This document shows, piece by piece, positions 38,867 to 40,230 of a DNA stretch of 64,000 bases (position 1 is the first letter of the stretch; each line of letters starts with the position of its first letter). The position numbers were made by a program, and so were the translations under genes. Below the pieces are notes generated by a model. The model had not been told where the DNA came from. It saw only the letters and a program-made list of their open reading frames with translations, and did not search any database. The DNA is taken from NCBI RefSeq assembly GCF_056712565.1, contig NZ_CM160072.1; one strand, given 5' to 3'.

Positions 38867-40230
38867 ATGTCCACAATTACATTGTTATGCATTGCGTTAG
38901 CTGGCGTAATCATGCTGTTGCTACTGGTCATCAAGGCAAAGGTACAACCATTCGTTGCTCTGCTCCTCGTCAGCCTGTTAGTCGCACTTGCGGCGGGTAT
39001 ACCGGCGGGCGAAGTGGGTAAAGTGATGATCGCCGGGATGGGCGGTGTGCTTGGTTCCGTCACTATTATTATTGGTCTGGGCGCTATGCTGGGGCGTATG
39101 ATCGAACACTCTGGTGGTGCAGAGTCACTGGCTAATTATTTCAGTCGCAAGTTAGGTGACAAACGAACTATCGCTGCGCTGACTCTGGCAGCGTTCTTCC
39201 TCGGTATTCCCGTCTTCTTTGATGTCGGCTTTATTATTCTTGCGCCAATCATTTACGGTTTTGCCAAGGTTGCCAAAATATCACCACTCAAATTTGGCCT
39301 GCCTGTCGCTGGGATCATGCTCACTGTTCACGTGGCGGTACCGCCGCATCCAGGCCCTGTCGCCGCAGCGGGGTTACTCCACGCAGACATCGGCTGGCTA
39401 ACCATCATCGGTATTGCGATTTCTATTCCCGTAGGGGTTGTTGGCTACTTTGCAGCGAAAATAATCAATAAGCGCCAATATGCGATGTCGGTCGAGGTAC
39501 TGGAACAGATGCAACTGGCTCCGGCCAGTGAGGAAGGCGCGACAAAATTAAGCGATAAAATAAATCCACCGGGCGTCGCGCTGGTCACCTCGCTAATTGT
39601 TATTCCTATCGCGATTATCATGGCGGGTACGGTTTCTGCAACACTGATGCCGCCTTCGCATCCCCTGCTTGGTACGCTACAGTTGATCGGCTCACCAATG
39701 GTAGCTCTAATGATTGCGCTGGTGCTGGCATTCTGGTTATTGGCTTTACGTCGCGGCTGGAGCTTACAACACACCAGCGACATTATGGGCTCTGCCCTTC
39801 CCACTGCGGCGGTAGTGATTTTGGTTACTGGTGCTGGAGGGGTATTTGGCAAAGTGCTGGTGGAATCGGGCGTCGGTAAAGCCCTTGCCAACATGTTACA
39901 AATGATTGACCTGCCTCTGTTACCAGCCGCATTTATTATTTCACTGGCGCTGCGTGCATCGCAGGGGTCAGCAACCGTAGCAATCCTGACAACCAGCGGG
40001 TTACTCTCAGAAGCGGTGATGGGATTAAATCGATTCAGTGCGTATTGGTGACGCTGGCAGCCTGCTTTGGTGGGCTTGGCGCGTCACATATTAATGACTC
40101 AGGGTTCTGGATTGTGACCAAATATCTGGGGTTGTCGGTAGCAGACGGTCTGAAAACCTGGACAGTGTTAACGACCATTCTCGGTTTTACCGGATTCTTA
40201 ATTACCTGGTGCGTATGGCTCGTCATCTAA
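38867..40230 (+). pseudogene. ygbN: GntP-family transporter interrupted by an apparent 1-bp frameshift
   Basis: A 394-codon frame stops at 40049-40051; the conserved GntP C-terminus (VTLAACFGGLGASHINDSGFWIV...) continues in the +1 frame as ORF 40045-40230. A single base inserted near 40031 would restore one ~454-aa reading frame. Confidence 0.65.

Follow-up and report, generated by a model that had tools for sequence, protein, structure and literature searches.

The window, by which we mean the whole 64-kb stretch of DNA analysed here, is a piece of the Escherichia coli chromosome that runs from srlB to ygcS and includes the polymorphic mutS-rpoS region, as read from the annotation of the near-identical segment of APEC 16-1068. 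Sequence relatedness places its source in the B2/ST95 complex of E. coli. The ygbN gene, a non-essential accessory transporter gene that lies within the window, is one nucleotide short and is the focus of this report.

The ygbN locus and its neighbours

The gene cluster to which ygbN belongs starts with ygbI (34232-34999, minus strand), which encodes the DeoR-type repressor of the cluster and is intact. Four further intact open frames lie on the plus strand upstream of ygbN. These are ltnD (35195-36103), otnK (36100-37362), ygbL/otnC (37359-37997), and ygbM (38002-38778). All five genes match the ST95 references, and the ygbN deletion is the only indel in positions 30000-50000. The RefSeq names of the enzymes are L-threonate dehydrogenase, 3-oxo-tetronate kinase, and 3-oxo-tetronate 4-phosphate decarboxylase, and they follow Zhang et al. 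(2016) as cited in PMC12994016. The pathway assignment rests on the RefSeq gene names and on the citations in PMC12994016. The name of one neighbour deserves comment. RefSeq/PGAP calls the product of ygbM 'HPr family phosphocarrier protein', while the only Pfam match is a xylose-isomerase-like TIM barrel (AP_endonuc_2, 170.8 bits), and the RefSeq name is apparently wrong for an enzyme that resembles hydroxypyruvate isomerase.

The binding site of YgbI lies between ygbI and ygbJ, and deletion of ygbI de-represses ygbJKLMN (bioRxiv 10.1101/2021.06.10.447994). Additionally, mutations in ygbI appeared during evolution on m-tartrate, together with over-expression of ygbJKLMN (PMC6452873). Gene order and this co-regulation by YgbI make YgbN the putative uptake component of the ygbJKLM tetronate cluster (ltnD, otnK, otnC/ygbL, and ygbM). 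In the literature searched, no direct assay of YgbN transport was found.

The truncated ygbN ORF occupies 38867..40051 on the plus strand and encodes 394 amino acids, namely residues 1-388 of the wild type followed by RFSAYW and a TGA stop. Beyond it, at 40292..40326, there is a hairpin with a perfect 13-bp stem and a 9-nt loop, followed by TTTT. A scan of the sequence picks up a shorter form of this hairpin. It separates ygbN from the MBL-hydrolase gene, which converges on it, at one edge of a B2-specific islet, and it is probably a terminator common to both genes. No gene follows ygbN on its strand here, and a premature stop has nothing downstream to affect. The islet itself (40373..42192) holds a gene for an MBL-fold metallo-hydrolase (40373-41416, minus strand) and a gene for a flavodoxin-family protein (41641-42192, plus strand). 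It corresponds to the 'pattern III' insert between o454 and nlpD, where o454 is ygbN, and this insert is found almost only in B2 strains, STC95 among them (PMC4209514). Beyond the islet lies rpoS (42370-43362, minus strand), which is intact and encodes 330 amino acids.

Two of the genomes used for comparison differ from the window in nearby genes. In UTI89, an IS1A insertion interrupts pphB, a phosphatase gene (segment 80-1315; window counterpart 33525-34181). In APEC 16-1068 pphB is one intact CDS, and the window is identical to that genome across 33525-34181. In ATCC 11775, the E. coli type strain, rpoS is annotated as an incomplete pseudogene that lacks its C-terminus (segment 6508-7365), whereas rpoS of the window has its full 330 codons.

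A missing C and a displaced reading frame

Alignment of positions 39950-40110 with UTI89 and ATCC 11775 gives 162 columns, of which 161 are identical and one is a gap, with no other difference. The gap is a 1-bp deletion at 40031..40032 on the plus strand, where one C of a CC doublet is gone (wild type AATCCGATT, window AATCGATT). In its wider context the sequence reads AAATCCGATT in UTI89 and ATCC 11775 and AAATCGATT in the window. The lost base can be either C of the doublet 40031/40032, as the alignment fits both equally. The initial annotation, which had ascribed a lesion to ygbN of the GntP family, thus had the right gene, site, and base; it had placed a single missing base near 40031 and had recommended alignment to ygbN of other E. 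coli strains, and that alignment returns exactly one missing C.

In the mechanical ORF list, the ORF in the start frame terminates with AVMGLNRFSAYW and a stop, its last residues being GLNRFSAYW. This agrees, as do the translations, with the earlier placement of the stop at 40051. The out-of-frame tail at 40031..40051 (plus strand) reads CGA TTC AGT GCG TAT TGG TGA, that is, RFSAYW and a stop, with the aberrant codons at 40031-40048 and the premature TGA at 40049-40051. The displaced C-terminal remainder lies at 40033..40230 on the same strand. It comprises I390-I454 and a TAA codon (40228-40230), its DNA equals that of intact ygbN, and both the SHINDSGFW motif and the final transmembrane helix are encoded in it. 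Three-frame translation of 39960-40233 finds the GntP-like C-terminus (...VTLAACFGGLGASHINDSGFWIVTKYLGL...WLVI and two consecutive stops) in a second frame, and the ORF list gives the second ORF, in the other frame, as 40045..40230. The initial annotation had already followed the C-terminus to 40230 and had called its frame +1; the continuation holds, but in the terms used for ribosomal frameshifts the frame is -1 (equivalent to +2) relative to the start frame.

A contiguous protein of about 454 residues had been expected upon repair. With the C restored, the gene encodes exactly 454 amino acids, and the product is WP_000104443.1, to which residues 1-388 of the window ORF are identical. The repaired gene is 1,365 nt long and carries the RefSeq label 'GntP family transporter'. 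Its product matches PF02447 (also the TIGR00791 family) with 513.9 bits against a cut-off of 22.5, over positions 2-438 of 440, which is a full-length family match. It also matches the NCBIfam equivalog NF007332 with 829.2 bits against a cut-off of 524, over 1-454 of 454. The gene in the window shares its DNA with the YgbN gene of ST95 strains (o454, b2740; NF007332; WP_000104443.1) at all 1,365 positions but one, and it shares the genomic place as well, where it follows ygbI-ltnD-otnK-ygbL-ygbM and adjoins the rpoS-side islet. The products differ, as YgbN of ST95 strains has 454 amino acids while that of the window has 394 and is without the conserved C-terminal motif and the last helix. The layout is that of a frameshifted pseudogene in the PGAP sense, a CDS that can be aligned to its reference protein only with a switch of frame: a single reference protein is matched by the two parts in different frames, with a small indel at the junction and an early stop. 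The truncation is a deterministic fact of the sequence and not a statistical signal.

The deletion has a side effect on the local sequence. It turns AATC-C-GATT into a perfect 8-nt palindrome, AATCGATT, at 40028..40035, and it creates a new ClaI site (ATCGAT, 40029-40034) that is the only one between 33686 and 44755, i.e., within about 11 kb. Known quasi-palindrome hotspots, where mutations arise by template switching, have arms far longer than 4 nt. The arms here are only 4 nt long with no loop, which is too short for quasi-palindrome mutagenesis to carry weight, and chance is the simpler reading. When the sequence was read directly, no GATC or CCWGG methylation motif was found at the deletion site.

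A full-length YgbN would still be made if a programmed -1 ribosomal frameshift or transcriptional slippage, as in dnaX or IS1 insAB', rejoined the two frames. The geometry would permit this, since a -1 shift anywhere in 40032-40051 would restore the frame, and geometry is all that speaks for it. Neither a slippery X XXY YYZ heptamer in any phase nor a homopolymer of four or more nucleotides occurs in 39990-40051, the 62 nt before the stop. Additionally, a 60-base query centred on the deletion finds the deletion allele in 0 of the 4,595 complete E. coli genomes that carry the stretch; all 4,595 have the extra C, and the two-frame layout is not conserved. At least 80% of ygbN is carried in one aligned place by 4,587 genomes. 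Programmed recoding, having neither a slippery site nor a conserved two-frame layout behind it, was rejected, and its probability is practically negligible.

What the truncation removes from YgbN

The Pfam model GntP_permease matches the truncated ORF over profile positions 2-376 of 440 and the displaced piece over positions 381-438 of 440 (66.6 bits). Conservation within the family was read from 92 aligned, diverse members whose identity to YgbN is 28-54%. These were taken from a representative search, as a word-indexed homologue search returned near-identical E. coli proteins only. Six columns of the alignment are invariant (G72, G367, S368, G402, F414, and W415), and N410 and D411 are conserved in at least 90% of the sequences. 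Five of these eight conserved columns (G402, N410, D411, F414, and W415) fall after residue 388. The product lacks residues 389-454, and hence the GntP C-terminal motif (G402 ... N410-D411-S-G-F414-W415) is missing from the 394-aa protein while it is still encoded out of frame at 40033-40230.

A PDB sequence search detected no GntP homologue of solved structure. An AlphaFold2 model of intact YgbN, built on the 92-sequence alignment, has a mean pLDDT of 91.7 and a pTM of 0.89. In this model a helical hairpin, the second of the fold, is formed by residues 351-366 and 369-380, with G367-S368 at its tip, and the break in the window ORF falls in the loop 381-388, which precedes helices 389-404, 412-420, and 425-453. 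Foldseek finds 38 matches in the PDB at E <= 0.001, every one to families of the DASS/SLC13, TRAP, and AbgT types, with a probability of 1.0 and TM-scores of 0.45-0.67. The matched structures include SLC13/VcINDY, TRAP SiaQM/IseQM, AbgT (MtrF, YdaH), and Pho90. Intact YgbN is therefore predicted to have the elevator fold of the ion-transporter superfamily. Its predicted fold is like that of DASS (VcINDY, SLC13), TRAP DctM/SiaQM, and AbgT proteins, but the sequence identity is only 11-17%. Two repeats, each a hairpin plus a broken helix, can be assigned in the YgbN model from its secondary-structure string rather than by superposition.

The C-terminal order of hairpin, broken helix, and last transmembrane helix parallels HPout-TM10a/b-TM11 of VcINDY. 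In the elevator fold, each hairpin is followed by a broken helix, and the unwound centre of this helix and the tip of the hairpin form the site for substrate and coupling ion, as established for VcINDY. According to the model, the frameshift removes the second broken helix (SHINDSGFW) and the final transmembrane helix. By analogy with DASS and TRAP transporters, we infer that the lost motif would form part of the substrate or coupling-ion site of YgbN. As the broken helix with the most conserved motif of the family is lost together with the last transmembrane helix, the 394-aa product is very probably inactive. It is probably unstable as well.

Two separately made parts of a membrane transporter can in some cases complement each other, and the lost helices might be supplied as a separate polypeptide. 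In that case translation would restart in the C-terminal frame at GTG 40048 or TTG 40045 (codons within 40045..40050, plus strand), and a C-terminal piece of 60-61 amino acids would assemble with the 394-aa piece. Several features are compatible with such an arrangement. The stop and a possible start overlap, GTG 40048 and the TGA forming GTGA, the break adjoins the loop 381-388 of the model, and only wild-type P389-L394 (or to V395) would be missing. However, no Shine-Dalgarno-like sequence is present within 20 nt upstream of TTG 40045 or GTG 40048, and both codons lie within helix 389-404, which would lose its first 6-7 residues on a restart. The layout occurs in no other genome, which points to an accident and not to an evolved design. 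Moreover, neither of the two possible restart products is found by exact look-up in a collection of about 15 billion proteins. A split transporter of this kind is highly improbable. We think it equally far-fetched that a real frameshift yields two polypeptides by termination-reinitiation at GTGA (40048-40051), whether as a working split GntP transporter or with a new, possibly dominant-negative, role for the 394-aa protein. If it were true, the locus would be a natural test of whether the hairpin-adjacent last helices of an elevator transporter work in trans. Recoding and split-gene readings together claim only a very small share of the probability.

A private allele or an error in the record

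The window was compared with its relatives segment by segment. Over 30000-50000, at least 25 genomes of the ST95 complex (S88, MS7163, SF-468, and others) span 20,002 bases where the window has 20,001, and the bit score of these matches is the value expected for one gap and nothing else. Over 1-25000 the best matches have one mismatch and no difference in length, and perfect matches are present for 25001-30000 and 41000-64000. A base-by-base scan of the 64 kb against APEC 16-1068 finds four substitutions and one deletion. The ygbN deletion is the sole indel found across the 64 kb. Three of the four substitutions recur in other genomes or are peculiar to APEC 16-1068. The fourth, at 10953, is a private G where all of the roughly 4,560 complete genomes that have the 61-mer carry A; it is intergenic and lies 7 nt past the ascG stop. 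The substitution at 10953 and the ygbN deletion are thus the two differences in the window that have no counterpart in the compared genomes.

The same singularity is met at the protein level. The 394-aa product is absent, by exact look-up, from about 15 billion proteins or 153 billion gene positions, a data set to which assembled public read sets also contribute, while the intact YgbN allele is found there on at least 1,000 contigs. A deletion-spanning 31-mer, GATGGGATTAAATCGATTCAGTGCGTATTGG, has 0 hits in metagenome contigs, a look-up of low power in which the wild-type 32-mer used as control was found only 3 times. By these sequence comparisons, the deletion allele is private to the window, and they yield no independent record of it.

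The close relatives of the source can be narrowed further by a variant in fhlA. A C at 28415 (fhlA codon 260) encodes Pro where APEC 16-1068 has Thr, and this rare FhlA variant (P260) is found on 73 contigs in the protein collection. Only two complete genomes are identical to the window over 25001-30000, including the C at 28415, and these are Z0117EC0054 (from a dog) and APEC E18055 O2:K1:H7. FhlA P260 is a usable sub-lineage marker. For the FhlA-P260 match one representative place is shown, in which ygbN encodes 454 amino acids and the 10-kb flank ends 315 nt before the deletion site.

The initial annotation had offered two explanations, a pseudogene in this strain or an assembly error, and both survive the comparisons. 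The reading that we prefer, at a probability of about 0.5, is that the frameshift is a real, recent, and strain-private null allele, i.e., a pseudogene. One C of the doublet at 40031/32 would have been lost from the chromosome. Translation would then pass through six wrong codons to the stop at 40049-40051, and the resulting 394-aa product, without residues 389-454, would be unable to transport. The regulator gene ygbI and the genes ltnD, otnK, ygbL/otnC, and ygbM are intact. Only the dedicated uptake step would be lost, namely uptake for the presumed L-threonate/D-erythronate, tartrate-related route.

The other explanation is that the C was never lost from the DNA of the organism, that its absence reflects an error of sequencing, consensus, or polishing or a change made after assembly, and that ygbN of the strain is normal and encodes 454 amino acids. 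We put this a little below an even chance. No kind of consensus error is commoner than a lone deletion of one base, the DNA on either side is otherwise the same as in the relatives, and a one-base slip in a short run of C looks like an error. A CC doublet is not, however, a typical site of homopolymer error, and the context is free of GATC and CCWGG. Rarity also favours an error, as the allele occurs in none of the 4,595 complete genomes with the stretch, and its product is missing from a protein collection that draws on read-set assemblies and holds the intact allele at least 1,000 times and the sub-lineage 73 times. On the other hand, PGAP would hide such a product as a pseudogene, and its absence from the protein collection is therefore weak evidence. 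The RefSeq set of complete E. coli genomes does not contain the source record, which again is in line with an error. Against this, there is no second indel in 64 kb, whereas a long-read assembly left unpolished would carry a load of them. Since the deletion is the only indel in the 64 kb and the other segments are length-matched, the assembly is not generally indel-ridden. The private substitution at 10953 looks like a true terminal-branch mutation, and it suggests that the window includes a real terminal branch of private mutations. Additionally, real frameshifts of ygbN do occur in other genomes.

Loss of ygbN elsewhere takes several forms. No ygbN match is found in 825 of 5,426 complete genomes, in agreement with 'pattern I' of the mutS-rpoS region, in which the function of YgbN is likewise lost within the same hyper-variable region (PMC4209514). 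There the whole gene is absent, whereas in the window a point frameshift affects a pattern III (B2) locus that is intact in other respects. Among 60 genomes with ygbN, sampled so as to be spread out, the gene is disrupted in two, L1_E925 and OkiPb01715. L1_E925 (NZ_LR883050.1) has a ygbN that is 2 nt short and that PGAP labels 'frameshifted'. In OkiPb01715 (NZ_AP042695.1), a deletion joins the first ~327 nt (24%) of ygbN to nlpD and removes rpoS wholly. Similarly, the representative search returned four proteins of the collection (P0137, P0144, P0173, and P0267) in which E. coli YgbN goes out of frame after residues 107, 134, 171, or 271. In all six cases the same gene is broken by small indels or deletions, but at other positions, and none has the deletion at 40031. 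As ygbN is disrupted in natural isolates, its loss is tolerated. The class of event is ordinary, and only this allele is new.

A real loss of YgbN would bear on the tetronate pathway. It is plausible that the loss would uncouple the putative pathway, as the initial annotation had supposed. E. coli also has paralogues of the GntP family (GntT, GntU, GntP, IdnT, and DsdX), for several of which NCBIfam models exist, and these might substitute for YgbN. If the null allele is real, this would be an ST95-type strain that has no dedicated tetronate permease and has kept the enzymes, and it would provide a natural ygbN null for the assignment of the substrate. For curation, the missing C is a single base to flag before ygbN is annotated as a pseudogene. 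The significance is local, with no bearing on open mechanistic questions, and rpoS and the islet are unaffected.

A minor observation concerns a more distant part of the window. A gene for a helix-turn-helix protein and a small gene for a hypothetical protein, which are not known from E. coli K-12, lie at 15218-15848 between ascB and hycI, as placed by correspondence with APEC 16-1068.
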